The notes under the pieces are model-generated. The model searched no databases, had not been told where the DNA came from, and worked only from the letters and a program-made list of their open reading frames with translations. Positions 1-54,427 of a DNA stretch of 64,000 bases are shown piece after piece; position 1 is the first letter of the stretch; each line of letters begins with the position of its first letter. The position numbers and the translations under genes were made by a program. The DNA comes from Eledone cirrhosa (taxonomy: Eukaryota), in the NCBI GenBank assembly GCA_964016885.1, contig OZ024742.1:54994001-55058000 (forward strand), in the 5' to 3' direction.

Positions 1-3000
1 CTTGTCTAATGCCATGTGCGTTTTTCACCGCTAGTTGACTCCTCTGCCGCCAGGAAAAAACTCGTTGATAACGTAAATTCCGTTCCACTTACTCTAGTAG
101 GCTTTTATATTTATATGTGAGCTGATAGAGTACAGTCTAAGGATTTACAGAAACCCATGAAGCTAGATTTAACACCTTTCTAGTGGGTCCGGGTATGATT
201 TTACATTCATTTAAATTATTGACGTATTGTTTTATTGATATTTTTTATCTGTTTGGCCCGAATCTTCCTTTATCGATTTTAAATCGTATGGTTGATTGTA
301 GACTTGTTCTATATGTGACGGTATTTTAACGATAGTTATAGCTCTGATTCATCTGAATTATTGAGCCCTCTGCCGCTCATATCGAATTTCGTTTATCGTG
401 AACTCGTGCGCCGATTTTTCGATACTCGATCTTTCTAATATATTTAGCTCTGGACATAGCTATCCACCAGTTAATTTTATTGCTCATTTTTTGTCGATTC
501 TATTGAGTGATGAATAGCTTTTGTTTTATTTTAACATGTCTATTGAGCACTCTAATTCGATATGTGTATTTCCACATTCACTCGAATTGTTTTCGCGGAT
601 ATAGGGGTCATCTCCCTTGTCTAATGCCATGTGCGTTTTTCACCGCTAGTTGACTCCTCTGCCGCCAGGAAAAAACTCGTTGATAACGTAAATTCCGTTC
701 CACTTACTCTAGTAGGCTTTTATATTTATATGTGAGCTGATAGAGTACAGTCTAAGGATTTACAGAAACCCATGAAGCTAGATTTAACACCTTTCTAGTG
801 GGTCCGGGTATGATTTTACATTCATTTAAATTATTGACGTATTGTTTTATTGATATTTTTTATCTGTTTGGCCCGAATCTTCCTTTATCGATTTTGAATC
901 GTATGGTTGATTGTAGACTTGTTCTATATGTGACGGTATTTTAACGATAGTTATAGCTCTGATTCATCTGAATTATTGAGCCCTCTGCCGCTCATATCGA
1001 ATTTCGTTTATCGTGAACTCGTGCGCCGATTTTTCGATACTCGATCTTTCTAATATATTTAGCTCTGGACATAGCTATCCACCAGTTAATTTTATTGCTC
1101 ATTTTTTGTCGATTCTATTGAGTGATGAATAGCTTTTGTTTTATTTTAACATGTCTATTGAGCACTCTAATTCGATATGTGTATTTCCACATTCACTCGA
1201 ATTGTTTTCGCGGATATAGGGGTCATCTCCCTTGTCTAATGCCATGTGCGTTTTTCACCGCTAGTTGACTCCTCTGCCGCCAGGAAAAAACTCGTTGATA
1301 ACGTAAATTCCGTTCCACTTACTCTAGTAGGCTTTTATATTTATATGTGAGCTGATAGAGTACAGTCTAAGGATTTACAGAAACCCATGAAGCTAGATTT
1401 AACACCTTTCTAGTGGGTCCGGGTATGATTTTACATTCATTTAAATTATTGACGTATTGTTTTATTGATATTTTTTATCTGTTTGGCCCGAATCTTCCTT
1501 TATCGATTTTAAATCGTATGGTTGATTGTAGACTTGTTCTATATGTGACGGTATTTTAACGATAGTTATAGCTCTGATTCATCTGAATTATTGAGCCCTC
1601 TGCCGCTCATATCGAATTTCGTTTATCGTGAACTCGTGCGCCGATTTTTCGATACTCGATCTTTCTAATATATTTAGCTCTGGACATAGCTATCCACCAG
1701 TTAATTTTATTGCTCATTTTTTGTCGATTCTATTGAGTGATGAATAGCTTTTGTTTTATTTTAACATGTCTATTGAGCACTCTAATTCGATATGTGTATT
1801 TCCACATTCACTCGAATTGTTTTCGCGGATATAGGGGTCATCTCCCTTGTCTAATGCCATGTGCGTTTTTCACCGCTAGTTGACTCCTCTGCCGCCAGGA
1901 AAAAACTCGTTGATAACGTAAATTCCGTTCCACTTACTCTAGTAGGCTTTTATATTTATATGTGAGCTGATAGAGTACAGTCTAAGGATTTACAGAAACC
2001 CATGAAGCTAGATTTAACACCTTTCTAGTGGGTCCGGGTATGATTTTACATTCATTTAAATTATTGACGTATTGTTTTATTGATATTTTTTATCTGTTTG
2101 GCCCGAATCTTCCTTTATCGATTTTAAATCGTATGGTTGATTGTAGACTTGTTCTATATGTGACGGTATTTTAACGATAGTTATAGCTCTGATTCATCTG
2201 AATTATTGAGCCCTCTGCCGCTCATATCGAATTTCGTTTATCGTGAACTCGTGCGCCGATTTTTCGATACTCGATCTTTCTAATATATTTAGCTCTGGAC
2301 ATAGCTATCCACCAGTTAATTTTATTGCTCATTTTTTGTCGATTCTATTGAGTGATGAATAGCTTTTGTTTTATTTTAACATGTCTATTGAGCACTCTAA
2401 TTCGATATGTGTATTTCCACATTCACTCGAATTGTTTTCGCGGATATAGGGGTCATCTCCCTTGTCTAATGCCATGTGCGTTTTTCACCGCTAGTTGACT
2501 CCTCTGCCGCCAGGAAAAAACTCGTTGATAACGTAAATTCCGTTCCACTTACTCTAGTAGGCTTTTATATTTATATGTGAGCTGATAGAGTACAGTCTAA
2601 GGATTTACAGAAACCCATGAAGCTAGATTTAACACCTTTCTAGTGGGTCCGGGTATGATTTTACATTCATTTAAATTATTGACGTATTGTTTTATTGATA
2701 TTTTTTATCTGTTTGGCCCGAATCTTCCTTTATCGATTTTAAATCGTATGGTTGATTGTAGACTTGTTCTATATGTGACGGTATTTTAACGATAGTTATA
2801 GCTCTGATTCATCTGAATTATTGAGCCCTCTGCCGCTCATATCGAATTTCGTTTATCGTGAACTCGTGCGCCGATTTTTCGATACTCGATCTTTCTAATA
2901 TATTTAGCTCTGGACATAGCTATCCACCAGTTAATTTTATTGCTCATTTTTTGTCGATTCTATTGAGTGATGAATAGCTTTTGTTTTATTTTAACATGTC

Positions 3001-6000
3001 TATTGAGCACTCTAATTCGATATGTGTATTTCCACATTCACTCGAATTGTTTTCGCGGATATAGGGGTCATCTCCCTTGTCTAATGCCATGTGCGTTTTT
3101 CACCGCTAGTTGACTCCTCTGCCGCCAGGAAAAAACTCGTTGATAACGTAAATTCCGTTCCACTTACTCTAGTAGGCTTTTATATTTATATGTGAGCTGA
3201 TAGAGTACAGTCTAAGGATTTACAGAAACCCATGAAGCTAGATTTAACACCTTTCTAGTGGGTCCGGGTATGATTTTACATTCATTTAAATTATTGACGT
3301 ATTGTTTTATTGATAATTTTTATCTGTTTGGCCCGAATCTTCCTTTATCGATTTTAAATCGTATGGTTGATTGTAGACTTGTTCTATATGTGACGGTATT
3401 TTAACGATAGTTATAGCTCTGATTCATCTGAATTATTGAGCCCTCTGCCGCTCATATCGAATTTCGTTTATCGTGAACTCGTGCGCCGATTTTTCGATAC
3501 TCGATCTTTCTAATATATTTAGCTCTGGACATAGCTATCCACCAGTTAATTTTATTGCTCATTTTTTGTCGATTCTATTGAGTGATGAATAGCTTTTGTT
3601 TTATTTTAACATGTCTATTGAGCACTCTAATTCGATATGTGTATTTCCACATTCACTCGAATTGTTTTCGCGGATATAGGGGTCATCTCCCTTGTCTAAT
3701 GCCATGTGCGTTTTTCACCGCTAGTTGACTCCTCTGCCGCCAGGAAAAAACTCGTTGATAACGTAAATTCCGTTCCACTTACTCTAGTAGGCTTTTATAT
3801 TTATATGTGAGCTGATAGAGTACAGTCTAAGGATTTACAGAAACCCATGAAGCTAGATTTAACACCTTTCTAGTGGGTCCGGGTATGATTTTACATTCAT
3901 TTAAATTATTGACGTATTGTTTTATTGATATTTTTTATCTGTTTGGCCCGAATCTTCCTTTATCGATTTTAAATCGTATGGTTGATTGTAGACTTGTTCT
4001 ATATGTGACGGTATTTTAACGATAGTTATAGCTCTGATTCATCTGAATTATTGAGCCCTCTGCCGCTCATATCGAATTTCGTTTATCGTGAACTCGTGCG
4101 CCGATTTTTCGATACTCGATCTTTCTAATATATTTAGCTCTGGACATAGCTATCCACCAGTTAATTTTATTGCTCATTTTTTGTCGATTCTATTGAGTGA
4201 TGAATAGCTTTTGTTTTATTTTAACATGTCTATTGAGCACTCTAATTCGATATGTGTATTTCCACATTCACTCGAATTGTTTTCGCGGATATAGGGGTCA
4301 TCTCCCTTGTCTAATGCCATGTGCGTTTTTCACCGCTAGTTGACTCCTCTGCCGCCAGGAAAAAACTCGTTGATAACGTAAATTCCGTTCCACTTACTCT
4401 AGTAGGCTTTTATATTTATATGTGAGCTGATAGAGTACAGTCTAAGGATTTACAGAAACCCATGAAGCTAGATTTAACACCTTTCTAGTGGGTCCGGGTA
4501 TGATTTTACATTCATTTAAATTATTGACGTATTGTTTTATTGATATTTTTTATCTGTTTGGCCCGAATCTTCCTTTATCGATTTTAAATCGTATGGTTGA
4601 TTGTAGACTTGTTCTATATGTGACGGTATTTTAACGATAGTTATAGCTCTGATTCATCTGAATTATTGAGCCCTCTGCCGCTCATATCGAATTTCGTTTA
4701 TCGTGAACTCGTGCGCCGATTTTTCGATACTCGATCTTTCTAATATATTTAGCTCTGGACATAGCTATCCACCAGTTAATTTTATTGCTCATTTTTTGTC
4801 GATTCTATTGAGTGATGAATAGCTTTTGTTTTATTTTAACATGTCTATTGAGCACTCTAATTCGATATGTGTATTTCCACATTCACTCGAATTGTTTTCG
4901 CGGATATAGGGGTCATCTCCCTTGTCTAATGCCATGTGCGTTTTTCACCGCTAGTTGACTCCTCTGCCGCCAGGAAAAAACTCGTTGATAACGTAAATTC
5001 CGTTCCACTTACTCTAGTAGGCTTTTATATTTATATGTGAGCTGATAGAGTACAGTCTAAGGATTTACAGAAACCCATGAAGCTAGATTTAACACCTTTC
5101 TAGTGGGTCCGGGTATGATTTTACATTCATTTAAATTATTGACGTATTGTTTTATTGATATTTTTTATCTGTTTGGCCCGAATCTTCCTTTATCGATTTT
5201 AAATCGTATGGTTGATTGTAGACTTGTTCTATATGTGACGGTATTTTAACGATAGTTATAGCTCTGATTCATCTGAATTATTGAGCCCTCTGCCGCTCAT
5301 ATCGAATTTCGTTTATCGTGAACTCGTGCGCCGATTTTTCGATACTCGATCTTTCTAATATATTTAGCTCTGGACATAGCTATCCACCAGTTAATTTTAT
5401 TGCTCATTTTTTGTCGATTCTATTGAGTGATGAATAGCTTTTGTTTTATTTTAACATGTCTATTGAGCACTCTAATTCGATATGTGTATTTCCACATTCA
5501 CTCGAATTGTTTTCGCGGATATAGGGGTCATCTCCCTTGTCTAATGCCATGTGCGTTTTTCACCGCTAGTTGACTCCTCTGCCGCCAGGAAAAAACTCGT
5601 TGATAACGTAAATTCCGTTCCACTTACTCTAGTAGGCTTTTATATTTATATGTGAGCTGATAGAGTACAGTCTAAGGATTTACAGAAACCCATGAAGCTA
5701 GATTTAACACCTTTCTAGTGGGTCCGGGTATGATTTTACATTCATTTAAATTATTGACGTATTGTTTTATTGATATTTTTTATCTGTTTGGCCCGAATCT
5801 TCCTTTATCGATTTTAAATCGTATGGTTGATTGTAGACTTGTTCTATATGTGACGGTATTTTAACGATAGTTATAGCTCTGATTCATCTGAATTATTGAG
5901 CCCTCTGCCGCTCATATCGAATTTCGTTTATCGTGAACTCGTGCGCCGATTTTTCGATACTCGATCTTTCTAATATATTTAGCTCTGGACATAGCTATCC

Positions 6001-9000
6001 ACCAGTTAATTTTATTGCTCATTTTTTGTCGATTCTATTGAGTGATGAATAGCTTTTGTTTTATTTTAACATGTCTATTGAGCACTCTAATTCGATATGT
6101 GTATTTCCACATTCACTCGAATTGTTTTCGCGGATATAGGGGTCATCTCCCTTGTCTAATGCCATGTGCGTTTTTCACCGCTAGTTGACTCCTCTGCCGC
6201 CAGGAAAAAACTCGTTGATAACGTAAATTCCGTTCCACTTACTCTAGTAGGCTTTTATATTTATATGTGAGCTGATAGAGTACAGTCTAAGGATTTACAG
6301 AAACCCATGAAGCTAGATTTAACACCTTTCTAGTGGGTCCGGGTATGATTTTACATTCATTTAAATTATTGACGTATTGTTTTATTGATATTTTTTATCT
6401 GTTTGGCCCGAATCTTCCTTTATCGATTTTAAATCGTATGGTTGATTGTAGACTTGTTCTATATGTGACGGTATTTTAACGATAGTTATAGCTCTGATTC
6501 ATCTGAATTATTGAGCCCTCTGCCGCTCATATCGAATTTCGTTTATCGTGAACTCGTGCGCCGATTTTTCGATACTCGATCTTTCTAATATATTTAGCTC
6601 TGGACATAGCTATCCACCAGTTAATTTTATTGCTCATTTTTTGTCGATTCTATTGAGTGATGAATAGCTTTTGTTTTATTTTAACATGTCTATTGAGCAC
6701 TCTAATTCGATATGTGTATTTCCACATTCACTCGAATTGTTTTCGCGGATATAGGGGTCATCTCCCTTGTCTAATGCCATGTGCGTTTTTCACCGCTAGT
6801 TGACTCCTCTGCCGCCAGGAAAAAACTCGTTGATAACGTAAATTCCGTTCCACTTACTCTAGTAGGCTTTTATATTTATATGTGAGCTGATAGAGTACAG
6901 TCTAAGGATTTACAGAAACCCATGAAGCTAGATTTAACACCTTTCTAGTGGGTCCGGGTATGATTTTACATTCATTTAAATTATTGACGTATTGTTTTAT
7001 TGATATTTTTTATCTGTTTGGCCCGAATCTTCCTTTATCGATTTTAAATCGTATGGTTGATTGTAGACTTGTTCTATATGTGACGGTATTTTAACGATAG
7101 TTATAGCTCTGATTCATCTGAATTATTGAGCCCTCTGCCGCTCATATCGAATTTCGTTTATCGTGAACTCGTGCGCCGATTTTTCGATACTCGATCTTTC
7201 TAATATATTTAGCTCTGGACATAGCTATCCACCAGTTAATTTTATTGCTCATTTTTTGTCGATTCTATTGAGTGATGAATAGCTTTTGTTTTATTTTAAC
7301 ATGTCTATTGAGCACTCTAATTCGATATGTGTATTTCCACATTCACTCGAATTGTTTTCGCGGATATAGGGGTCATCTCCCTTGTCTAATGCCATGTGCG
7401 TTTTTCACCGCTAGTTGACTCCTCTGCCGCCAGGAAAAAACTCGTTGATAACGTAAATTCCGTTCCACTTACTCTAGTAGGCTTTTATATTTATATGTGA
7501 GCTGATAGAGTACAGTCTAAGGATTTACAGAAACCCATGAAGCTAGATTTAACACCTTTCTAGTGGGTCCGGGTATGATTTTACATTCATTTAAATTATT
7601 GACGTATTGTTTTATTGATATTTTTTATCTGTTTGGCCCGAATCTTCCTTTATCGATTTTAAATCGTATGGTTGATTGTAGACTTGTTCTATATGTGACG
7701 GTATTTTAACGATAGTTATAGCTCTGATTCATCTGAATTATTGAGCCCTCTGCCGCTCATATCGAATTTCGTTTATCGTGAACTCGTGCGCCGATTTTTC
7801 GATACTCGATCTTTCTAATATATTTAGCTCTGGACATAGCTATCCACCAGTTAATTTTATTGCTCATTTTTTGTCGATTCTATTGAGTGATGAATAGCTT
7901 TTGTTTTATTTTAACATGTCTATTGAGCACTCTAATTCGATATGTGTATTTCCACATTCACTCGAATTGTTTTCGCGGATATAGGGGTCATCTCCCTTGT
8001 CTAATGCCATGTGCGTTTTTCACCGCTAGTTGACTCCTCTGCCGCCAGGAAAAAACTCGTTGATAACGTAAATTCCGTTCCACTTACTCTAGTAGGCTTT
8101 TATATTTATATGTGAGCTGATAGAGTACAGTCTAAGGATTTACAGAAACCCATGAAGCTAGATTTAACACCTTTCTAGTGGGTCCGGGTATGATTTTACA
8201 TTCATTTAAATTATTGACGTATTGTTTTATTGATATTTTTTATCTGTTTGGCCCGAATCTTCCTTTATCGATTTTAAATCGTATGGTTGATTGTAGACTT
8301 GTTCTATATGTGACGGTATTTTAACGATAGTTATAGCTCTGATTCATCTGAATTATTGAGCCCTCTGCCGCTCATATCGAATTTCGTTTATCGTGAACTC
8401 GTGCGCCGATTTTTCGATACTCGATCTTTCTAATATATTTAGCTCTGGACATAGCTATCCACCAGTTAATTTTATTGCTCATTTTTTGTCGATTCTATTG
8501 AGTGATGAATAGCTTTTGTTTTATTTTAACATGTCTATTGAGCACTCTAATTCGATATGTGTATTTCCACATTCACTCGAATTGTTTTCGCGGATATAGG
8601 GGTCATCTCCCTTGTCTAATGCCATGTGCGTTTTTCACCGCTAGTTGACTCCTCTGCCGCCAGGAAAAAACTCGTTGATAACGTAAATTCCGTTCCACTT
8701 ACTCTAGTAGGCTTTTATATTTATATGTGAGCTGATAGAGTACAGTCTAAGGATTTACAGAAACCCATGAAGCTAGATTTAACACCTTTCTAGTGGGTCC
8801 GGGTATGATTTTACATTCATTTAAATTATTGACGTATTGTTTTATTGATATTTTTTATCTGTTTGGCCCGAATCTTCCTTTATCGATTTTAAATCGTATG
8901 GTTGATTGTAGACTTGTTCTATATGTGACGGTATTTTAACGATAGTTATAGCTCTGATTCATCTGAATTATTGAGCCCTCTGCCGCTCATATCGAATTTC

Positions 9001-9656
9001 GTTTATCGTGAACTCGTGCGCCGATTTTTCGATACTCGATCTTTCTAATATATTTAGCTCTGGACATAGCTATCCACCAGTTAATTTTATTGCTCATTTT
9101 TTGTCGATTCTATTGAGTGATGAATAGCTTTTGTTTTATTTTAACATGTCTATTGAGCACTCTAATTCGATATGTGTATTTCCACATTCACTCGAATTGT
9201 TTTCGCGGATATAGGGGTCATCTCCCTTGTCTAATGCCATGTGCGTTTTTCACCGCTAGTTGACTCCTCTGCCGCCAGGAAAAAACTCGTTGATAACGTA
9301 AATTCCGTTCCACTTACTCTAGTAGGCTTTTATATTTATATGTGAGCTGATAGAGTACAGTCTAAGGATTTACAGAAACCCATGAAGCTAGATTTAACAC
9401 CTTTCTAGTGGGTCCGGGTATGATTTTACATTCATTTAAATTATTGACGTATTGTTTTATTGATATTTTTTATCTGTTTGGCCCGAATCTTCCTTTATCG
9501 ATTTTAAATCGTATGGTTGATTGTAGACTTGTTCTATATGTGACGGTATTTTAACGATAGTTATAGCTCTGATTCATCTGAATTATTGAGCCCTCTGCCG
9601 CTCATATCGAATTTCGTTTATCGTGAACTCGTGCGCCGATTTTTCGATACTCGATC

Positions 9657-9668
<12 letters not shown>
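1..9668 (+). repeat. Tandem array of a 615-bp hammerhead-containing unit (retrozyme-like), about 15.7 copies, open at the left window edge
   Basis: cttgtctaat recurs at 1, 616, 1231 ... 9226. Only two single-base variants noticed by eye (896, 3316). No ORF of 60 aa or more inside the unit. The array stops at unit position 443 (taatatat) and runs into (TA)n. Confidence 0.97.
60..194 (+). ncRNA. Type I hammerhead ribozyme, U3-A8 core variant with long stem II (repeated every 615 bp, 16 copies)
   Basis: Stem I ACUCG(60-64)/CGGGU(190-194). Core UUGAUAA 65-71. Stem II GUAAAUUC(73-80)/GGAUUUAC(141-148), inner UACUCUA/UAGAGUA. GAAA 150-153. Stem III ACCCA/UGGGU, inner CUAGA/UCUAG. Cleavage triplet GUC 187-189. 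Confidence 0.8.
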
Positions 9669-11570
<1,902 letters not shown>

Positions 11571-11581
11571 AATAATCTACG

Positions 11582-14500
11582 CGAATATTCTATGTCTATA
11601 TTCACATATATATCGCTATTTCAGAGCATTTATTCCAATTTCTAATTTCTGCCGGACCGGCAACCGCTCTTTCAAACCAGTTCCTGTACACAGCTAAGTA
11701 TTCTATAAGTCTCTAGCTGTGTCATTCTCGATAAAAGCACTGGATATGTAGTCCTGATGATTTCTAACAAGAATGAAACGCGTAGATTACTTCCCTTGCT
11801 TTTATCGAGAATCTAATTGTAATACGTGACGTATTCTATTCTATAGCGATTAGGTCTTCAAAATGTTTATTATAAACATACAGAATATTCTCGAATATTC
11901 TATGTCTATATTCACATATATATCGCTATTTCAGAGCATTTATTCCAATTTCTAATTTCTGCCGGACCGGCAACCGCTCTTTCAAACCAGTTCCTGTACA
12001 CAGCTAAGTATTCTATAAGTCTCTAGCTGTGTCATTCTCGATAAAAGCACTGGATATGTAGTCCTGATGATTTCTAACAAGAATGAAACGCGTAGATTAC
12101 TTCCCTTGCTTTTATCGAGAATCTAATTGTAATACGTGACGTATTCTATTCTATAGCGATTAGGTCTTCAAAATGTTTATTATAAACATACAGAATATTC
12201 TCGAATATTCTATGTCTATATTCACATATATATCGCTATTTCAGAGCATTTATTCCAATTTCTAATTTCTGCCGGACCGGCAACCGCTCTTTCAAACCAG
12301 TTCCTGTACACAGCTAAGTATTCTATAAGTCTCTAGCTGTGTCATTCTCGATAAAAGCACTGGATATGTAGTCCTGATGATTTCTAACAAGAATGAAACG
12401 CGTAGATTACTTCCCTTGCTTTTATCGAGAATCTAATTGTAATACGTGACGTATTCTATTCTATAGCGATTAGGTCTTCAAAATGTTTATTATAAACATA
12501 CAGAATATTCTCGAATATTCTATGTCTATATTCACATATATATCGCTATTTCAGAGCATTTATTCCAATTTCTAATTTCTGCCGGACCGGCAACCGCTCT
12601 TTCAAACCAGTTCCTGTACACAGCTAAGTATTCTATAAGTCTCTAGCTGTGTCATTCTCGATAAAAGCACTGGATATGTAGTCCTGATGATTTCTAACAA
12701 GAATGAAACGCGTAGATTACTTCCCTTGCTTTTATCGAGAATCTAATTGTAATACGTGACGTATTCTATTCTATAGCGATTAGGTCTTCAAAATGTTTAT
12801 TATAAACATACAGAATATTCTCGAATATTCTATGTCTATATTCACATATATATCGCTATTTCAGAGCATTTATTCCAATTTCTAATTTCTGCCGGACCGG
12901 CAACCGCTCTTTCAAACCAGTTCCTGTACACAGCTAAGTATTCTATAAGTCTCTAGCTGTGTCATTCTCGATAAAAGCACTGGATATGTAGTCCTGATGA
13001 TTTCTAACAAGAATGAAACGCGTAGATTACTTCCCTTGCTTTTATCGAGAATCTAATTGTAATACGTGACGTATTCTATTCTATAGCGATTAGGTCTTCA
13101 AAATGTTTATTATAAACATACAGAATATTCTCGAATATTCTATGTCTATATTCACATATATATCGCTATTTCAGAGCATTTATTCCAATTTCTAATTTCT
13201 GCCGGACCGGCAACCGCTCTTTCAAACCAGTTCCTGTACACAGCTAAGTATTCTATAAGTCTCTAGCTGTGTCATTCTCGATAAAAGCACTGGATATGTA
13301 GTCCTGATGATTTCTAACAAGAATGAAACGCGTAGATTACTTCCCTTGCTTTTATCGAGAATCTAATTGTAATACGTGACGTATTCTATTCTATAGCGAT
13401 TAGGTCTTCAAAATGTTTATTATAAACATACAGAATATTCTCGAATATTCTATGTCTATATTCACATATATATCGCTATTTCAGAGCATTTATTCCAATT
13501 TCTAATTTCTGCCGGACCGGCAACCGCTCTTTCAAACCAGTTCCTGTACACAGCTAAGTATTCTATAAGTCTCTAGCTGTGTCATTCTCGATAAAAGCAC
13601 TGGATATGTAGTCCTGATGATTTCTAACAAGAATGAAACGCGTAGATTACTTCCCTTGCTTTTATCGAGAATCTAATTGTAATACGTGACGTATTCTATT
13701 CTATAGCGATTAGGTCTTCAAAATGTTTATTATAAACATACAGAATATTCTCGAATATTCTATGTCTATATTCACATATATATCGCTATTTCAGAGCATT
13801 TATTCCAATTTCTAATTTCTGCCGGACCGGCAACCGCTCTTTCAAACCAGTTCCTGTACACAGCTAAGTATTCTATAAGTCTCTAGCTGTGTCATTCTCG
13901 ATAAAAGCACTGGATATGTAGTCCTGATGATTTCTAACAAGAATGAAACGCGTAGATTACTTCCCTTGCTTTTATCGAGAATCTAATTGTAATACGTGAC
14001 GTATTCTATTCTATAGCGATTAGGTCTTCAAAATGTTTATTATAAACATACAGAATATTCTCGAATATTCTATGTCTATATTCACATATATATCGCTATT
14101 TCAGAGCATTTATTCCAATTTCTAATTTCTGCCGGACCGGCAACCGCTCTTTCAAACCAGTTCCTGTACACAGCTAAGTATTCTATAAGTCTCTAGCTGT
14201 GTCATTCTCGATAAAAGCACTGGATATGTAGTCCTGATGATTTCTAACAAGAATGAAACGCGTAGATTACTTCCCTTGCTTTTATCGAGAATCTAATTGT
14301 AATACGTGACGTATTCTATTCTATAGCGATTAGGTCTTCAAAATGTTTATTATAAACATACAGAATATTCTCGAATATTCTATGTCTATATTCACATATA
14401 TATCGCTATTTCAGAGCATTTATTCCAATTTCTAATTTCTGCCGGACCGGCAACCGCTCTTTCAAACCAGTTCCTGTACACAGCTAAGTATTCTATAAGT

Positions 14501-15322
14501 CTCTAGCTGTGTCATTCTCGATAAAAGCACTGGATATGTAGTCCTGATGATTTCTAACAAGAATGAAACGCGTAGATTACTTCCCTTGCTTTTATCGAGA
14601 ATCTAATTGTAATACGTGACGTATTCTATTCTATAGCGATTAGGTCTTCAAAATGTTTATTATAAACATACAGAATATTCTCGAATATTCTATGTCTATA
14701 TTCACATATATATCGCTATTTCAGAGCATTTATTCCAATTTCTAATTTCTGCCGGACCGGCAACCGCTCTTTCAAACCAGTTCCTGTACACAGCTAAGTA
14801 TTCTATAAGTCTCTAGCTGTGTCATTCTCGATAAAAGCACTGGATATGTAGTCCTGATGATTTCTAACAAGAATGAAACGCGTAGATTACTTCCCTTGCT
14901 TTTATCGAGAATCTAATTGTAATACGTGACGTATTCTATTCTATAGCGATTAGGTCTTCAAAATGTTTATTATAAACATACAGAATATTCTCGAATATTC
15001 TATGTCTATATTCACATATATATCGCTATTTCAGAGCATTTATTCCAATTTCTAATTTCTGCCGGACCGGCAACCGCTCTTTCAAACCAGTTCCTGTACA
15101 CAGCTAAGTATTCTATAAGTCTCTAGCTGTGTCATTCTCGATAAAAGCACTGGATATGTAGTCCTGATGATTTCTAACAAGAATGAAACGCGTAGATTAC
15201 TTCCCTTGCTTTTATCGAGAATCTAATTGTAATACGTGACGTATTCTATTCTATAGCGATTAGGTCTTCAAAATGTTTATTATAAACATACAGAATATTC
15301 TCGAATATTCTATGTCTATATT

Positions 15323-15333
<11 letters not shown>
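11582..15333 (+). repeat. 310-bp hammerhead-containing tandem array, inverted right arm (12.1 copies, ribozyme on the plus strand)
   Basis: Reverse complement of the left-arm unit. cgaatattctatg at 11582, 11892 ... 15302. Ends at ttcacatatatat and merges into (TA)n. Confidence 0.97.
11724..11812 (+). ncRNA. Type I hammerhead ribozyme with palindromic minimal stem III (17 complete copies across both arms)
   Basis: Stem I GUAGUC(11748-53)/GAUUAC(11785-90), extended by a perfect 16-bp AUUCUCGAUAAAAGCA/UGCUUUUAUCGAGAAU helix. Core CUGAUGA 11754-60. Stem II UUCU-aaca-AGAA. GAAA 11775-78. Stem III ACGCGU palindrome. Cleavage GUA after 11784. Confidence 0.9.
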
Positions 15334-15378
<45 letters not shown>

Positions 15379-15379
<1 letters not shown>

Positions 15380-17147
15380 CAAGGTCACAGAAAAAGTAAT
15401 AGCGCAACTAATCAGAGAGAGAATTGACCTGGATGAAATGCAGTTCGGGTTTGTGTCAGGCAAAAGTACCACAGACGCTCTTTTCATTGTACGACAACTA
15501 CAGGAGAAGTACCTAGCTAAAGGTAAACCCCTCTACTTAGCTTTTGTCGACTTGGAGAAAGCCTTCGACAGAGTCCCCCGTTCCATTATCTGGTGGGCTC
15601 TTAGAAAACAAGGGGTTGACGAATGGCTTGTGAGAGCTATACAAGCCATGTATAAAGAAACAGTCAGCAAGGTTAGAATTAACAACGAATATAGTGAAGA
15701 GTTTAGCGTAAAAGTAGGCGTCCATCAGGTCTCTGTTCTCAGCCCCCTACTATTTATTATTGCCCTTCAGGCTATAACAGAGGAGTTCAAGACCGGCTGC
15801 CCATGGGAACTCCTATATGCAGACGACCTGACACTCATAGCTGAATCAATGGCCGAGCTAGAGAAGAAATTCCAAACATGGAAGCACGGCCTAGAATTAA
15901 CCTGGCTAAGACTAAAGTTCTAGTTTGTAGGAAAGAAAATAAGGCGCCGGTCCCTTCCGGGAAATGGCCATGCTCAGTGTGTAGGAAAGGCGTAGGTAGA
16001 AACTCCATTTTATGTACCAAATGCAAAGTATGGGTGCATAAAAGATGTAGTGGGATCACAGGTAAGCTAACTAAGAACATAGATTTTACATGTGGCCGGT
16101 GCTCTGGTGCAATAAGTAGCAGCAAGTGCTCACAAAATACTAGCTCTTTCAATTGCGCAGAGGGTTCTATAGAAATAGTGGACAGCTTCCGTTACCTGGG
16201 CGACAAAATCAGCAGTGGGGGAGTGTGCTCTGAAAGTACAGTAGCTAGAGTCAGAACTGGTTGGAAAAAGTTCAGAGAGCTTATACCACTATTAGCTGCT
16301 AAAGGGTTCTCCCTAAAAATGAAAGGCAGGTTGTATGATGCCTGCATACGAACAGCAATGTTGCATGGCAGTGAGACTTGGACATTGTGTGCAGAGAATA
16401 TACGCAGACTAGAGAGGAACGAAGCTTGCATGCTCCGCTGGATGTGTAACAGTAATATACGTGAACGGCAAAGCATAGACGAACTAAGGAAAAAATTAGA
16501 AATAAGAGGGATCAGATGTTGTTTACTCGAGAGAAGGCTACGTTGGTATGGACACGTGATGCGCATGAAAGTCGATAGCTGTATAACAAAATGCAGGGCA
16601 ATAAAGATAGACGGTAGCCACGGAATAGGCAGACCTAGAAAAACCTGGGACGAGCTGATAAACTCCGACCTCACACACTTACACCTCTCCAAGACAATGT
16701 CACTGGACGGAGACCTTTGGCGGTACTCAGTAACAGAGAAGACCCGCCTTACCTAAATACATAGTAAAACCTACTACAGCCAGTAGGCATCTCTAACAAA
16801 ATACACCCCGTCCCACCACCCCCACCCCACCCACACCACCCCGTTCTATGTAAAGTTGTGTTGGTGCCGCGCCATCCAGGCCGAAACAAATGAGATCGTG
16901 TAGGTGTCACGACAAAAAAACACACAGTCCACGCTGTAATGTGGCCGTTTAGGCAACATGGTAAAAACATTCCAGACCCACACTGTAAATGTGGTTGGTG
17001 TTAGGAAGGGCATCCAACTGTAGAAAACCTGCCAGACAGTCCTATGCGAGCAAGACAATCACTCTTGCCTCAAGTGGGAATACCCCCGTCCAAACCCATG
17101 CAAGCGTGGAACACGGACGTCAAACGTTGATGATGATGATGATGATG
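15379..17147 (+). mobile_element. 5'-truncated RTE-clade LINE (RT with PHD-like Cys insert), frameshifted, (GAT)n tail
   Basis: ORFs 15273-15923 (QFGF..GKST, FVDLEKAFDRV, LLYADDL) and 15878-16756 (CSVC..CTKC..VHKRC..CGRC, RRLRWYGHVMRM, GRPRKTW). Tail (gat)n at 17129-17148. Confidence 0.9.
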
Positions 17148-17230
17148 ATATATATATATATATATAGTGTATACATATATATATATATATATAGTGTGTG
17201 TGTATACATATATATATATATATATATATA

Positions 17231-17345
<115 letters not shown>

Positions 17346-17380
17346 AAAGAATAGAGGTGTAACACACAAGTTATTATATA

Positions 17381-17511
17381 TTGGTAAACGGAATAGAGAA
17401 TGCTGACAAATTGTTCACAGTTGAAAATTGGCTTAATTAGGAATAAAAGAGTATTAGTGATTGTATGGGTTCGTATTCAGTTGTGTCAGCATTTTCTATT
17501 CCGTTTACCAA
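17381..17511. mobile_element. Tiny MITE-like / fold-back element with 28-bp terminal inverted repeats
   Basis: ttggtaaacggaatagagaatgctgaca (17381-17408) vs tgtcagcattttctattccgtttaccaa (17484-17511), one mismatch. TA flanks on both sides. Confidence 0.6.
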
Positions 17512-19155
<1,644 letters not shown>

Positions 19156-21169: not shown

Positions 21170-21252
21170 ATATATATAGTGTATATATATATATGTATAG
21201 TGTATATATATATATATATATAGAGTATATATATATATATATATATATAATG

Positions 21253-21296
<44 letters not shown>

Positions 21297-22349
21297 GTAT
21301 ATATATACATATATATATATATAGTGTATATATATATATATAGTGTGTATATATACATATATATATAGTGTATATAAATATATATATATATAGTGTATAT
21401 ATATATATATATATATAGTGTATATATATATATATTGTATATATATATATATAGTGTATATATATATATGTATATATATTTATATGTATATATATAGTGT
21501 ATATATATATATATTGTATATATATATATAGTGTATATATATATATGTATATATATTTATATGTATATATATAGTGTATATATATATATATATGTATATA
21601 TATAGTGTATATATATATATATCTAGTGTATATATATATATATATATACTTTATATATACATATATTTATATATATATATAATGTATATATATATATATA
21701 CTGTATATATATATATACTGTATATATATATATATAGTGTATATATATATATATATATGTAGTGTATATATATATATATAGTGTATACATATATACATAG
21801 TGTATATATATATACATAGTGTATATATACATATACATATATAGTATATATAGTATATATATATATATAGTATATATGCATATATATATATAGTATATAT
21901 ATATATATATAGTATATATATATATATATATAGTATATATGCATATATATATAGTATATATATATATATAGTATATATATATATATATATAGTATATATA
22001 TATATATATTTATATATATAGTATATATATATATATATAGTATATATATATACTATATACTATATATATATATATACTATATATATATATAGTATATATA
22101 TACTATATATATATATATACTATATATATATATATATACTATATATATATATATATATATAGTATATATATATAGTATATATATATATATTATATGTATA
22201 TATATATATAGTATATATATATATATAGTATATATATATATATAGTATATATATATATATATAGTATATGTATATATATATATGTATATATATAGTATAT
22301 ATATATATATAGTATATGTATATATATAGTATATGTATATATATATATA

Positions 22350-22385
<36 letters not shown>

Positions 22386-22437
22386 TGTATTTATATATAG
22401 TATATATATATATATAGTATATATATATATATAGTAT
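21170..22437. repeat. Long interrupted (TA)n microsatellite
   Basis: Direct reading. Confidence 0.97.
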
Positions 22438-22591
22438 AGCAAATGTATGGTAGGTCGTACGTGAATCGCGATGATCACGCCTGACCTACCAAATATGCGA
22501 CGGGAGCTAGTTAAGCTCTATGCGTATAAGCAGAGCAGAAATATTAATGAAAAAGAACAAAGGAACTATTATGACATTATAAGAAGTTTAT

Positions 22592-33767: not shown

Positions 33768-36700
33768 CTACAGGCTAATATAGAGAGTAGGCTCATTCAC
33801 TCGGGCTATCACACAGACGAAAACCGCCTCTCCTTCGTTTTTGAAAGGGGGAGGCGGTTTGATCGTGACAATGTTCTCGGTGGTCAACCGGATTGGTCCC
33901 ACCCGCGACAGTAGTCGTTCTACATAGCCCCACAGGTCAGCAACGCCCGAGCAGTGTACGAATGCGTGTGCGACGGTTTCCTCGTCACGCACGCATCTTG
34001 GACAGATCTTCTTCGAGAGGTCCCTACCCGGGCGCCCATGTCTGTAGAGCTTGTCCCGAACGGGTAGAGCTCCTCGGTAACATTGCCAAGCCAGGGACTT
34101 TTGGAAGTTGTCCATCGGGCCCGGGCCAAACGTCCTACCGAACAGACTGGCCAGCTCGTCTTCCTCCATGCCCAGAGCCTCTCCGAGAGCGTCGTCGCAC
34201 TTACTGCGCACCAACCCTCTATAGAATGTTGAGGTTGAGTCTCCACTGATTGCCGGATCCGCTTGCCAGAGGGCCGTGAGCGCCTGGGCACATTCAATGT
34301 GCCAGTCGCCCACTTTTCTCGATCTTTGCTTGACCCAGGATTGCAGCTCGGTGAGTGAGACGAGTCTCGGAAAGGCTCGCCTTACAAACAGGGCCCACAC
34401 CGGCTGACCGGTGAGGAATACCAGGAGGTGCCGTAGCCTTAATGCGTGTATACGCATCGTCAGCCATGGCATCACCAGCCCTCCGTTCGAAGGGTGTTGA
34501 CAGCAGATGGATCTTCTCACGAAAGGAGCCCGCTTCTTCCAAAGAAATCGGAAGAGCGCGCGCTCCATTTTGGCGAGTGTTTTCTCTGGGCAAGGCACGA
34601 CGGTCAAGCGGTAGTAGATGACGGACGCTATATAAGCGTTCGTAACTTCCGCTCGACCTTTCAGGGATAGTTTGCACTCGGCCCACTTCTGGGCGATTGC
34701 AAAGACCTTGCCCGTTACCTCGTCCCAGTTTTTCTCCACCTGAAGGTCCGGTCCGAACCAGACCCCGAGCAGCTTCACCGGTCCCTCCGTCCAGCGTCCT
34801 ACGATACCGTCGAAGGGCATCGTTTTGCCCCTCCACGTCCTGAGTTGCAAACCGACGGACTTGTCCCGGTTCAGCTTGGCTCCTGTGAACCTTTCCTATT
34901 CCTCCAGTAAGGTGCCGATCTGCCCGATTTCCGAGGCGCACGACACCATTACTGTCACGTCATCGGCGTAGGCCGACACCGCTTTCCGCAATCCCGGTTC
35001 CAAGGGGATGCCCTGCAACAGCTCCAGCTTCCGCAGTAGTGGCTCGAGAGCCAGCACATAAGGAGGGAGGAGAGAGGGCATCCCTGTCGAATGGATCACG
35101 TGATTTGGAACGGATCCGAGAGGTAGCCGTTCACCTTGACCCTCGAGCAGGTGTTGCTGCTGTGCATTGCAGCAATCCAGCCCCTGAAAACGGGTCCAAA
35201 GCCTGCCGCCGCGAGCACCGCATCCAGGTACCGATGGTCAACCCTATCGAACGCCTTAGATTGATCCAAGTTGATCAGGGCCCCGCCAAAGCCGGGTTCG
35301 TTCCCTACCCTTTCTACGATGTATCGCATGAGGTGGAGGTTGTCGTGTATGGACCTGGACGGGATTGCGCATGTCTGCGCTTCTCCCACCAGGTTCCCGA
35401 CGACAAGCGCCAACCTCTTCGCTAACACCTTGGCCAAAATCTTTAACTTTGTGTTTAGCAGAGTTATGGGCCTGAAGTTATCTATGTCATCCCCCTTGTT
35501 CTCGTCCTTCCTCACCAGCGTGACTACGCCCTTTGTCATAGAACTGGGAATTCTCCCGTTCTGTTGCCAGTTGCAGTAGACCGCCTCGAGGAGACCGGAG
35601 AGCAAGCCCGGCATCGCTACATAAAGTTCGTAAGGTAGACCATCGAGACCCGGAGATTTGCGTTTGCCGCATTGGCGCAGCGCTTCCCCTATTTCAGCGG
35701 CTGAAATCGGCCTCTCGCAGGACTTCCCCTCCCCGTGCGAGAGCCGCGCCAGACCGTTGAGGTATGGACCGAAACAGTCCTGCAAAGCGCCGTTGAAAGG
35801 CCGTGCTCATCCGCTGAGGTTCAAGGATCACGCGTCCATCCTGGTCTTTCAAAGACCGAATCGTGGACTTGTTTCCACTTTTTGCCTCTGTCACTCGGGC
35901 CCAGCTAACAGTTTTGGCTCCCTCGTTACCCAGAGCACGTATTTTACTCCTGACAACGCAGCCCTCGTGTTTCGCAACAAAGAACTGGTCTAGGGCCGTT
36001 CTTGACGCCAGCACGCCGGCCACGTTGCCACTCCTAATCGGCTCGTCTACTCTATTTGTTAATTCCCTTTCAGTTCTATTCCTATCTGATGCTAATTCCC
36101 GACTAAAACCTATCGATTCTATTCTAATTTCTCTCTTGAGAGAGCCCCACCACCTGTTGTTGACAATTGCCCCCGTCAAATGCTGCTTAACTAGTGTGCT
36201 AATCCGCTTACTGTAAGCTTTGTTTGTCGGTAAATACAAGTTTAGCTTCCAGTAACCGGGTCCCCGTCTATGAGTTCTATCAAGGTTGACCACTCCGGTC
36301 ACCAACTTGTGATCCGAATAGTCAACCATGAACATTCGTGGACAGCTTAATATGTCCCTATCCTTATTTCTAACTAGGAACCTATCTAGGTACGACCTAG
36401 ATGTTCCGCTGCGATTACTCCACGTCCACCGTGACACAGTCGGAAAATCTAGTCGATATCTATCGGCCAGATCAGATCGGCCGATTAATCGTTTGAGGCT
36501 GTTACAACCCCCTCTATCGGGACATGCCCCTACATAGTCCCAACGTGCATCCAGGATACCATTCCAGTCCCCCACTAAAAGCAAGGAGCGAGACGTTCCC
36601 AGAACATTCTCCAGGCGTCGGAAGAAGTCCGGTCGCGGTGTCCCAGATGGGGCATACGCTGCCACCAGCCTGGAAGCTCCACCTTCACGACTGCCGACGT

Positions 36701-36988
36701 CTAAAACCACCAGTCGACCCTCCGGGTCCAGGTGCACCTTCTGTGTGGCAAGACCCAGGTATTTTCGCAGCAGAAGGACAACCCCACCCCCACCCTCGGC
36801 TGACAGAGAGATGCGTAGATCTCAAAGTCGTCGAAGATGGGGGCCAGTTGGCGCTCGCTGCTGATCCTGAACACACAAATAACCATTACATCCCATCTGT
36901 TCGACCTGAGGTCATTTAAGAGTTTGCCCTGTTTCCAGGACATCCCCAAGCCGCGTGCATTCACACATCCAACTCTTATATTGGCCAT
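33768..36988 (-). pseudogene. Tx1 ORF2 (APE endonuclease, reverse transcriptase, C-terminal Cys/His), broken
   Basis: NARGL, GDWNGILD, SYLDRFL, SDHK, KSPGLDGL, FRPITLLN, LDQSKAFDRV, YADDV and CPRC..ETVAHAFVHC across ORFs 36701-36988, 35694-36737, 35096-35785, 34896-35099 and 33768-34850. Confidence 0.9.
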
Positions 36989-42221: not shown

Positions 42222-42268
<47 letters not shown>

Positions 42269-42271
42269 CTT

Positions 42272-42591
<320 letters not shown>

Positions 42592-42655
42592 CATATATGT
42601 ATTGACTATATATATTTATATCTGTCTATCTATCTATCTATATATCCATCTCTCT

Positions 42656-43107: not shown

Positions 43108-43637
43108 GATGTATATATATATACGTCTGGAAATACGCAAAGCTATAGATCAGTGTTACCACACCAGAGTCAAATATGATAAACAGCGCCTTATACGGAA
43201 ATACGAATGGACTGTAAACAAATACTACAATGACAACATCCGCTCCCACAGACGGACCGACTACAACCACACCAGGGGCAACAGCTATAAAACACCCTCC
43301 GCTACACCCCCCCCAACATCGAACTACCTACCAAAGATGCTTCACACCTCGTTACCGACCTAACCGGTACCCTCACCAACGACGAACTCGAACTCCTGCG
43401 CCTCGGACCCAAGTTCATCATTACACAGCGTCTCGATGATAGACTGAAACTCGACATCGAAACCAACTTCTGTCGGACAGCATATCAACTGAAATGGCTA
43501 ACCGCCATCCATAACAATACCGAGATCGATTACAACCCCACAACCCACCACACACTCCCCACGTATCACCTCGACAACCCACTCCACCCCCCCCCCCCCC
43601 ACCCACCAACCAGGAACTTGACACTAAACTACTCAGG

Positions 43638-45428
43638 TTGAAACATTCTATCTCTAACATCCTTTCCCAACACACACACACACACAATAAACGCAACCTC
43701 AACAATGCACAATTTAATACTCTCACCAACCTAAGATCCAGGAACCTTGTGTACCTTCCCTCTGACAAAGGGAAAGAATTCTGTGTCATCTCGAGAGAGA
43801 CCTACAACAACTTAGCTCTCCAACATCTTAATGACCACAGCCTCTACTCGAAAGTCACAGGGACCTCCTCGACTCTAATCGAGGAAGGCATTAACACCCT
43901 ATGGACTAACATCTGTGTCCAACGAAAACTGCCAAAGAAGGTAAAAAACAACATAATGACTCGAAACAGCAAACTACCCACCTTCTACCACCTGGTTAAA
44001 ACACATAAACAAGGACCCGATTTGAAAATCAGGCCCATTGTCTCTAGCGTGGAGGGCCCACTCTACAAAATATCGTGGCTGCTCTCCACACTACTGAAAC
44101 CCATTCTACACACACTACCAGCCCACGTCTGCAGCTCAAAGGAGGTCTTGGAGCGACTACACCATCTGGCGCCCAACACCAGAAAGGACAACGGTTATGC
44201 CTTCAGTCTTGATGTGGTCGCCCTTTATACCTCCGTACCAGCATCCCCAGCTGTCGACCTGTTGACCGAACGAGTCCGAGCATCTAACTTACACTGCTTC
44301 GGACTCACACACACGGACATCCACCAACTCCTCTCCTTCGTTGTGGATAATGCACTCTTCAATTTCCTCGGCCACACGTACAAACAAATCTCTGGGCTAC
44401 CTATGGGCTCTAGTCTGTCCGGCATACTTGCGATCTCGTACATGGACCACCTGGAGCGCAAGGCACTCAATACCTGCCAACCCAACGCCGTCGCCTTCTA
44501 CTCCAGATACGTTGATGACATCCTGATACTTACTTCTTCCCGGGAGATGGCGAATGAAATTCACCAAATCTTCAACGATACTGACCATCACGTCGATTTC
44601 ACCATCGAACACCCAGGAGAAGACGGGTCACTCGCCCTCCTCGACTTCCGTATCAACATCTCGGAAGAAGGAGACATAAACACCACCTTCTACCGCAAAG
44701 CAGCGTGCAAGGACTTATTTGTGCATTACAACTCAGCCCTCCCCAACAACGCTAAGAGATGCTATGTCCTAAATGAACTGACACGGATCACTAACAGATG
44801 CAGCGACCCGATGGGTGTTCTCACCCATACCACGCAATTCCGTAATCTACTCAGATCTAATGGTTATCCCAAGCGACTGATTAACGGTATTAGAGACCCC
44901 AGACCCAATAGACAGACACCCACTAGAAACTTAAATAAAAGCAGGTGCTTCTTTAAAATCCCCCACCTGAGTGAATATACCACGAACGCCATCCGCAGGG
45001 CCATACGGACGGAGGGACTTGACATACATTTGGCCCACACAGGACCTTCGCTGCGAAGATGCCTCTCCAACAAACCCGACGAGTCAGATGGGACGTGTTC
45101 CCTCAGCAACTGCCCGATACGGGGGGCAGATTGCCTACGCACCTATGTCGCATATAAGATTCAATGCGATAAATGTAACAAGTTTTACATAGGTAGCACC
45201 ATCCGACCCCTACATGTTCGTATCAAGGAACATATCAACACCAACGCATCTTCCTTCCGTAAACACATCCTTAAATGCGGAAACCCACAGGGTAGACCCT
45301 TGGTCACAGTCCTAGCGACTGAACGCAGCATCGGATCCTTAAGGATAAAGGAAGCACTTGTTATTAAGAACCTCAGACCCCCACTTAACAACCGGGCTGA
45401 GAGAAATGAGCTGACATGGCTAACTTAA
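43638..45428 (+). CDS. PLE reverse transcriptase - GIY-YIG endonuclease polyprotein (596-aa open segment)
   Basis: PSDKG, FYHLVKTHK, IRPIVS, SLDVVALYTSV, QISGLPMGS, RYVDD, LALLD, YRK, CSLSNCPIRGADC linker, AYKIQC..C..FYIGST...RIKEH, E...I...PPLN. Confidence 0.93.
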   Translation: MKHSISNILSQHTHTHNKRNLNNAQFNTLTNLRSRNLVYLPSDKGKEFCVISRETYNNLALQHLNDHSLYSKVTGTSSTLIEEGINTLWTNICVQRKLPKKVKNNIMTRNSKLPTFYHLVKTHKQGPDLKIRPIVSSVEGPLYKISWLLSTLLKPILHTLPAHVCSSKEVLERLHHLAPNTRKDNGYAFSLDVVALYTSVPASPAVDLLTERVRASNLHCFGLTHTDIHQLLSFVVDNALFNFLGHTYKQISGLPMGSSLSGILAISYMDHLERKALNTCQPNAVAFYSRYVDDILILTSSREMANEIHQIFNDTDHHVDFTIEHPGEDGSLALLDFRINISEEGDINTTFYRKAACKDLFVHYNSALPNNAKRCYVLNELTRITNRCSDPMGVLTHTTQFRNLLRSNGYPKRLINGIRDPRPNRQTPTRNLNKSRCFFKIPHLSEYTTNAIRRAIRTEGLDIHLAHTGPSLRRCLSNKPDESDGTCSLSNCPIRGADCLRTYVAYKIQCDKCNKFYIGSTIRPLHVRIKEHINTNASSFRKHILKCGNPQGRPLVTVLATERSIGSLRIKEALVIKNLRPPLNNRAERNELTWLT

Positions 45429-51022: not shown

Positions 51023-51435
51023 ATATTTACGACAGCCTCAGTACACCATTTATACCTATCATACCTCAATCATAAAAATATGTTTTCAAAGACTTCATTT
51101 TTTTAAAGAGCATTGGTGTAATATTTCAAAAGATTCCATTATATTACAAGAATAGTACGTCAGATGGATTCAACTCACATTCATACATTCATATGAGGTT
51201 TTGCAATATAAAAGCGAGTGCATCATATGATCGCCAAGTAGAAAATTAAATGATGGATATACAAAGAAGATAATATATCAAATTTGTTTTTCATCTTCAT
51301 CTCAGTACACAACTATATCATATACATCATTTTAGACGATTATATTATATTATTCATTCGACAAAATTGCATAGGGCCAAACATAGCTCTGGTTAAGTAG
51401 TTTGCTTCGCAAGCACGTGGATTCCGATTGTGTCT
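51023..51435. repeat. Left arm of a 413-bp inverted repeat (right arm 53544-53956)
   Basis: Near-identical reverse complements; only about 4 differences seen. Confidence 0.95.
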
Positions 51436-53543: not shown

Positions 53544-53956
53544 AGACACAATCGGAATCCACGTGCTTGCGAAGCAAACTACTTAACCAGAGCTATGTTT
53601 GGCCCTATGCAATTTTGTCGAATGAATAATATAATATAATCGTCTAAAATGATGTATATGATATAGTTGTGTACTGAGATGAAGATGAAAAACAAATTTG
53701 ATATATTATCTTCTTTGTATATCCACCAGTTAATTTTCTACTTGGCAATCATATGATGCACTCGCTTTTATATTGCAAAACCTCATATGAACGTATGAAT
53801 GTGAGTTGAATCCATCTGACGTACTATTCTTGTAATATAATGGAATCTTTTGAAATATTACACCAATGCTCTTTAAAAAAATGAAGTCTTTGAAAACATA
53901 TTTTTATGATTGAGGTATGATAGGTATAAATGGTGTACTGAGGCTGTCGTAAATAT
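53544..53956. repeat. Right arm of the 413-bp inverted repeat
   Basis: Reverse complement of 51023-51435. Confidence 0.95.
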
Positions 53957-53964
53957 TATATGTA

Positions 53965-54427
53965 TATATACATACAAATGTACGTATTGTATATTTAACA
54001 ATATTCGATATGTTTATGAAAAATAGTTTGAAGATCTTTCGGTATGAAGTAATTTTATGACGAACGTTATATACATAGCTTCAGCAAATACGGGGGGAAT
54101 TAATCGACTATGCCACCGCTTCTTACTCACAAGTGGATGTCAAGACGACATAACTACCCTCATTTGTTGAAGCTAAAATAAGCTTGACTCTTATAAAATT
54201 CTGCTTATGCTTATGAGCTGCTAAAACTCATTTGCATTTGGAGCGGTTGCCGGTATAGCTTTAATTTAAATTTTGTATTGGTGCTCCGAAATAGCAGTAT
54301 ACATATGAATGTCCGTGATGTTTAATTATCAATTTACGCTATATTTATGAAAAACATCGACGATGCCACCGTTTCTCTCTCATGAGTGATTGTCAAGTCT
54401 ACATATCACCATGATGTTGCCGAAGCA
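53965..54427 (-). repeat. Diverged ~1.5-copy relative of the 310-bp retrozyme unit with two HHR remnants (54101-54150, 54356-54402)
   Basis: Shares gagcggttgccggt, tgctc.gaaatagc and tatgtttat...tttgaaga with the 310 unit. The minus strand reads UGUAGAC UUGACAA UCACUcaugAGAGA GAAA CGGUGgCAUCG UC/ GAU. Confidence 0.8.

Follow-up and report, generated by a model that had tools for sequence, protein, structure and literature searches.

How does a tandem array of identical ribozyme-bearing units come to be inverted within itself, and does the cleavage site of the ribozyme determine where the inversion falls? These questions are raised by a locus of Eledone cirrhosa at which two arms of the same 310-bp unit meet in opposite orientations. 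We analysed it within a stretch of 64,000 nucleotides (hereafter called the window), whose features are collected in Table 1. The initial annotation of this DNA had placed the inversion breakpoint at the cleavage site of a hammerhead ribozyme and had attributed it to the joining of two cDNAs, one of which had stalled near it.

Architecture of the array

Each arm shows a period of 310 with 100% matches and zero mismatches, and the unit of the right arm is the reverse complement of that of the left arm, the ratio of the right to the left arm being 2.18. We mapped the ends of the arms on a monomer whose position 1 is the first base 3' of the predicted cut. The left arm has its RNA 5' end at monomer position 305 and its RNA 3' end at 165, and the right arm has them at 108 and 139, respectively. 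The RNA-sense 5' ends of both arms face each other at the join (hereafter called the seam), in a head-to-head arrangement. Ribozyme-sense transcription is directed outward from the seam in both arms, and a fold-back RNA, through which the palindrome might yield dsRNA as the initial annotation suggested, would therefore need a transcript that enters from a flank, or antisense transcription.

At the outside of the array, both RNA 3' ends abut (TA)n tracts, with a microhomology of 2 nt (AT) for the left arm and 8 nt for the right arm. These two outer ends are separated by 24-34 nt on the unit; a separation of 24-40 nt is expected in 11% of cases by chance and was noticed post hoc. Neither arm terminates in poly(A). 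As both flanks consist of (TA)n, a target-site duplication is unreadable within the tract.

Table 1. Features of the inverted array and related elements in the window
Feature	Position	Strand	Description
Left (TA)n tract	9663-9849		GTG interruptions; likely target and primer for the left arm
Left arm	9850-11570	-	5.6 identical 310-bp retrozyme units
Longest palindrome of the unit, copy nearest the seam	11448-11467		9-bp arms, 2-nt spacer
Spacer	11458-11581		124 bp, between the perfect inverted arms 9850-11457 and 11582-13189
13-bp tandem duplication	11560-11587		Perfect 13-bp periodicity; crosses the inversion join and is bordered by TA
Predicted scissile bond nearest the seam	11564/11565	-	Predicted from sequence and core geometry
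CG microhomology	11569-11570, repeated at 11582-11583		Common to both arms
Right arm	11582-15333	+	12.1 identical 310-bp retrozyme units
First complete type I hammerhead motif of the right arm	11748-11790	+	Predicted cut 3' of 11784
Right (TA)n tract	15334-15379		Likely target and primer for the right arm
Penelope-type reading frame	43515-45428	+	637 aa; reverse transcriptase, C-terminal GIY-YIG-like domain
Old diverged relative of the unit	53966-54357	-	About 1.2 units, decayed core

Identity of the 310-bp unit

Each full unit harbours one type I hammerhead motif, and 17 complete cores were found in total, 12 on the plus strand (right arm) and 5 on the minus strand (left arm). The motif is made up of a 6-bp helix I, CUGAUGA, a helix II with a U-U mismatch at its base, GAAA, a helix III that consists of a single pair capped by a palindromic CGCG loop, and UA. 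Hammerheads of this form, with a palindromic helix III loop, are described as acting as dimers in the available parts of PMC4209133 and PMC7229834, and the duplex that two such loops would form here has a predicted energy of -9.5 kcal/mol. An Rfam search across the window gave zero matches reaching the gathering score, the motif itself being matched weakly by Hammerhead_HH9 (19.2 bits for a gathering score of 52, E 0.31). The monomer circle is predicted to fold at -67.8 kcal/mol, compared with -47.6 +/- 4.2 kcal/mol for 60 shuffled sequences (z -4.8).

The unit is low in G+C and has no apparent coding capacity, and its size falls within the range of about 150-450 bp of the tandem repeats of non-LTR retrozymes. 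By its structure the element is thus classified as a non-LTR retrozyme with predicted cleavage. Such a motif does not guarantee activity, given that one of nine predicted elements self-cleaved in the part of 10.64898/2026.07.22.740005 that is available. Compared with the metazoan non-LTR retrozymes as far as PMC7229834 and 10.64898/2026.07.22.740005 portray them, the element has in common with them the tandem unit, the low G+C content, the type I motif in each unit, the palindromic helix III loop, the strongly self-paired predicted circle and the lack of coding capacity. It differs by its two head-to-head arms, in which the scars of priming and joining can be read.

The window also contains an old relative of the unit, with 248 of 398 alignment columns identical and a score of 146, well above the shuffle maximum of 46.5. 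The alignment stops at about monomer position 139, in a TA-like tract, a coincidence to which AT richness may contribute. Over 53966-54460, this relative of the 310-bp unit contains two decayed hammerhead-like stretches with a common altered core. This decayed relative points to a long history of the family in the E. cirrhosa genome.

Microhomology and duplication at the seam

The unit accounts for every base of the junction, and no foreign or adapter-like base is present. The initial annotation had reported a templated 13-bp duplication and an inverted arm that starts through a 'cg' microhomology; the perfect periodicity of the duplicated stretch confirms the former, and the CG is indeed common to both arms. 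To assess coincidences we used as a chance model all 70,096 distinct head-to-head joins of the 310-bp unit. The CG sits within an imperfect match of 7 out of 10 bases, a level found in 0.55% of all joins and in 3.7% of those with at least 2 nt of microhomology.

Because the duplication holds bases of both the left and the right arm, it must postdate a first join. The predicted energies speak against the routes outlined next: the pairing of the first step, whether fold-back or in trans, is weak at -3.1 kcal/mol, and an overlap of 15 bp with a fairly stable -16.5 kcal/mol has to melt afterwards. The simplest route to the duplication would be mutual extension of the ends by a few bases, melting, and re-annealing via the terminal TA. 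A one-sided route, in which one end is extended, slips back, is copied again and rejoins, yields identical letters, and later slippage may also have been the source.

Both routes resemble trans SD-MMEJ, in which, according to the parts of PMC5728401 available, annealing, extension, melting and re-annealing over a break generate a short direct repeat. The likeness extends to cross-break annealing, short synthesis, release, a new microhomology and the resulting repeat. The difference is that the ends joined here would be those of cDNAs and that the polymerase might belong to the host or to the element. The comparison lends support to the end-joining-type templated synthesis suggested at the outset.

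A proposed insertion by Penelope-type machinery

We propose that the locus results from one recent Penelope-type insertion primed at (TA)n from both strands, that the seam was formed by microhomology end joining, and that the ribozyme cut was not decisive; we estimate the probability of this reading at roughly one half. An endonuclease would first nick (TA)n on both strands. Each 3' end would then prime on the retrozyme RNA, at two sites 24-34 nt apart, and the template, a circle or a long uncut multimer, would be copied over 5.6 and 12.1 units. As the observed microhomology suggests, the two cDNA 3' ends, each finishing in CG, would anneal, one of them on the axis of the strongest palindrome of the unit (see below). 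The ends would extend on each other, melt and re-anneal through their terminal TA, which would leave the observed 13-bp duplication over the join. Fill-in would finally produce a palindrome whose arms of 1.6 kb flank a spacer of 124 bp.

The twin-priming-like character that had been attributed to the insertion is supported by the position of both RNA 3' ends at (TA)n, with their microhomologies, and by the joining of the 5' ends; the CG at the seam likewise argues for two cDNAs joined via microhomology. The mechanism is twin-priming-like in its working, yet the insertion is no L1 event. In L1 twin priming, two cDNAs are joined through short complementarity and the arms have median lengths of 1.51 and 0.54 kb, as reported in the available portions of PMC2912911 and 10.1101/2024.08.27.596794. 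The present array resembles those insertions in the priming from both target ends, the join by short complementarity and the unequal arms, but it has no poly(A) tail, appears primed internally at both ends and would have had a repeating unit as template. In addition, what these sources call the 'internal duplication' of L1 is a stretch of the RNA covered by both arms, whereas the 13-bp duplication described here crosses the join.

Penelope elements are likelier agents than L1. Their insertions typically comprise inverted 5'-truncated copies and, at one end, a tail of 30-40 bp, and have microsatellites as targets (PMC8557442). According to PMC11167929, a purified Penelope protein can cleave both strands of the target at AT-rich sites and extend them, and two internal initiation sites bound the Penelope tail. 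The outer ends of our array, 24-34 nt apart, may be likened to such a tail mapping between two initiation sites. Going by the same partial sources and PMC3846280, head-to-head inversion, a palindrome at the junction and an AT-rich or (TA)n target are shared with Penelope insertions, and the offset of the outer ends may correspond to about one tail length. In contrast to such insertions, our array has no reading frame, and each of its sides is built of many perfect copies of a small unit.

The end of the old relative near monomer position 139, at a TA-like tract, may be counted in support of the proposed insertion; against it, we have one event only. Penelope-type elements are present in the genome of E. 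cirrhosa, as exemplified by the single such frame in the window (RVT_1, E 3.1e-11; GIY-YIG, 21 bits, under the cut-off of 22.6). This frame is a candidate partner at most. It has no detectable sequence similarity to the 310-bp unit, and no hammerhead motif was found near it. A 158-bp tandem pair follows the frame.

The palindrome axis and possible self-priming

The longest palindrome of the unit has its axis where the right arm begins (monomer 107/108). The arms of this palindrome reach a length of 9 at bond 108, the second best in the unit being 5, and the axis falls in a predicted RNA hairpin with a 4-nt loop at monomer 106-109. The palindrome itself is broken at the seam, and its arm is 8 bp in at least two of the four sequencing runs compared below. 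With the ambiguity due to microhomology allowed for, one of the two ends lies on the axis in about 2% of joins by chance, a coincidence noticed post hoc.

The same insertion might have acquired its seam by self-priming, which we regard as unlikely: the left cDNA would have folded 113 nt back onto its own hairpin loop, and a self-copy would have been followed by long-homology pairing with the cDNA from the right flank. Palindromes at Penelope head-to-head junctions have been interpreted as products of self-priming, in the part of PMC3846280 available, and the start of the right arm in the hairpin loop, on the axis, is what such an event would give. The 7-of-10 match would moreover lie within one strand and at short range. 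However, the fold-back pairing would be just as weak as noted above, and a pure hairpin fold-back predicts a 2-nt loop, not the spacer of 124 bp observed. Self-priming and a two-end join are inseparable from the sequence, spacers in a tandem array being defined only modulo 310.

Distance from the predicted cleavage site

The left arm stops 6 nt beyond the nearest predicted cut (4 nt if the CG is counted with the right arm), and its last base, 11570, opens the palindromic CGCG loop of helix III. That the arm ends in stem III, 6 nt past the predicted scissile bond, had been stated correctly in the initial annotation; to place the breakpoint 'at' the cleavage site overstated the case. In the chance model, 8.4% of joins place one of their two ends no more than 6 nt from the cut, a share that rises to 10% when 2 nt or more of microhomology are required; for a distance of up to 4 nt it is 5.7-7.2%. 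The coincidence is weakened further by the fact that the seam was chosen for study on account of it. The inner end of the right arm is 107 nt away from the cut, and the arms read across the site 6 (left) and 12 (right) times.

A cDNA that stopped at the 5' end of a self-cleaved RNA was excluded as the origin of the left arm, since this arm includes 4-6 nt that lie upstream of the cut. A looser version, in keeping with the initial annotation, would have the reverse transcriptase released a few bases after the cleavage/ligation junction, or after an end-to-end jump between self-cleaved monomers, so that inversion points cluster; we find it rather improbable. It would account for the short distance between the end of the left arm and the cut, which the duplicated bases recross, and for an end located in the palindromic loop through which dimers would pair (PMC4209133, in the part available). 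Nevertheless, the distance has an 8-10% chance even before the selection of the finding is allowed for, and the 18 full crossings (6 + 12) occurred without a stop. The right-arm end lies far from the cut, as noted. Furthermore, in the available part of PMC11167929, uncut RNA is the main or preferred substrate of the Penelope protein, insertion in vitro proceeds without need of cleavage, and RNA reads neither started nor stopped at the cut.

Given the chance distance and the 6 and 12 crossings, the ribozyme cut is unlikely to have set the breakpoint, and the nearness of the seam to it is likely a coincidence; a real link seems improbable. The stall at the cleavage/ligation site that had been postulated is likewise disfavoured by these observations, as well as by the 4-6 nt of upstream sequence in the arm, and the palindrome axis is the rarer of the two coincidences. 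It is similarly doubtful that such arrays are written at once by a Penelope-type enzyme that rolls round a 310-nt circle from both (TA)n strands and is released after the ligation junction. If this were true, inversion points throughout the family would be concentrated a few bases beyond the cut, and the chemistry of RNA circles would be recorded in the genome.

Possible artefact or later rearrangement

A library or assembly artefact, be it a chimeric read or the mis-join of two separate arrays via identical units, appears improbable to us as well. The seam comes from an assembly, and palindromes of identical units are a known assembly hazard, including for Penelope structures according to the accessible part of PMC8557442. 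A plain fold-back read was rejected: a read of this kind would run out of the array at 13189 and back along the left flank; the right arm instead continues past this point to 15333 and ends in a different phase and a different flank. The absence of foreign or adapter-like bases at the seam also speaks against an artefact, and so does the duplication across the join, which would take two rounds of synthesis.

Events at the DNA level after insertion, either inversion of part of an array or fusion of two opposite (TA)n insertions by an end-joined deletion, are hardly probable, despite microhomology and templated duplication being general marks of break repair (PMC5728401, as far as available), the self-complementarity of (TA)n, which could give the second breakpoint, and the preference of the available part of 10.64898/2026.07.22.740005 for local expansion through unequal crossover, for both outer ends lie within one short stretch of the unit and no variant marks an older array. 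A balanced inversion was rejected, as it predicts that the right arm starts at monomer position 166 and that a TA remnant is left; we found position 108, and no remnant at the seam.

Implications for the origin of retrozyme arrays

No description of an inverted multi-copy retrozyme array was found in the main texts searched. The main text of PMC7229834 does not contain the word 'inversion', and no inverted arrays were found in the part of 10.64898/2026.07.22.740005 available. The components of the event are already known, namely the non-LTR retrozyme, the Penelope/L1 type of junction and the end-joining scar.

Two origins have been put forward for such arrays in the accessible parts of these sources: the reverse transcription of circles into tandem cDNA (PMC7229834), and local expansion, by way of unequal crossover, once a Penelope end had been left behind (10.64898/2026.07.22.740005). 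The inverted array favours the writing of arrays in one reverse-transcription event over unequal crossover. A young, variant-free array with inversion and priming marks of the Penelope type, and possibly a tail mark, is the footprint expected of the reverse-transcription route, and it points to the class of enzyme involved. Seams gathered genome-wide would bear both on the route to arrays and on any role of the ribozyme cut. A single seam from one assembly is a good lead rather than a discovery, and its weight is limited.

The unit in sequencing runs

At least half of 16 words sampled from 11480-11680 were present in 20 of the 24 runs listed, the best run harbouring 11 of the 16 and none all 16. 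The 20 runs with the 310-bp unit carry 17 organism labels and come from 16 studies, and no RNA runs were among the matches listed. We compared four of the 20 (X3, X7, X9 and X10) over 11440-11800. Each yielded one closed-loop contig of 340 nt, at a depth of 6.7-34 and with one or two differences from the window. All four contigs follow a plain head-to-tail path that leaves the seam uncovered, and they contain no other inversion points of the unit. As these runs come from other samples and rare forms are lost in contigs, they provide no evidence against the seam.

The contigs establish that the 310-bp unit is genuine and also occurs elsewhere. Its distribution over the runs could be due to cross-contamination, to a passenger organism common to the samples, to close relatives or to horizontal spread, and its occurrence under 17 organism labels may be a more surprising lead than the seam itself. 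Scans of viral contigs and of metagenome contigs for the inversion and the unit returned no match. The variants in the runs fit the predicted structure: in X7, the U-U at the base of helix II becomes A-U, a variant of X3 is located in loop II, and in X7 and X10 a variant affects the first base of the hairpin loop that adjoins the start of the right arm (window positions of the variants: 11761, 11769 and 11459).

Other elements in the window

The window is AT-rich, with many (TA)n tracts and retroelement remains. A second, nearly perfect tandem array occupies 1-9662, with a period of 615, at least 15 copies and two variant bases; it ends in the left (TA)n tract of the 310-bp array, with an ATATAT microhomology. 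Its unit gave no Rfam match, simple scans revealed no hammerhead, HDV-like or twister-like motif, and no internal frame exceeds 62 aa. Compared with shuffled sequences, its predicted fold has z-scores of -3.5 (plus strand) and -2.3 (minus strand). This array is possibly another circle-derived insertion, with an unrecognised ribozyme.

Two inverted arms of 413 bp, 99% complementary, are found at 51023-51435 and 53544-53956. They enclose 2.1 kb of other repeats, and their outer ends lie at short TA-like runs. An 18-bp word common to these arms and the 615-bp unit does not rise above the shuffle level, and the 310-bp unit, the 615-bp unit and the 413-bp arms show no relation above that level. At 42263-42600, a short inverted repeat is centred on a (TA)n tract and might be a miniature inverted element or two tail-to-tail insertions.

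Directly after the right (TA)n tract, at 15380-16756, lies a reverse transcriptase element with a PHD finger, truncated at its 5' end and frameshifted, which we take to be RTE-like. Another element, presumably Tx1-like, encodes an endonuclease and a reverse transcriptase on the minus strand at 33768-36821. The long (TA)n tracts at 9663-9851, 17148-19154 and 21170-22438 carry an identical GTG interruption at 33 places, which suggests joint expansion or repeated retro-insertion of one type of tract.
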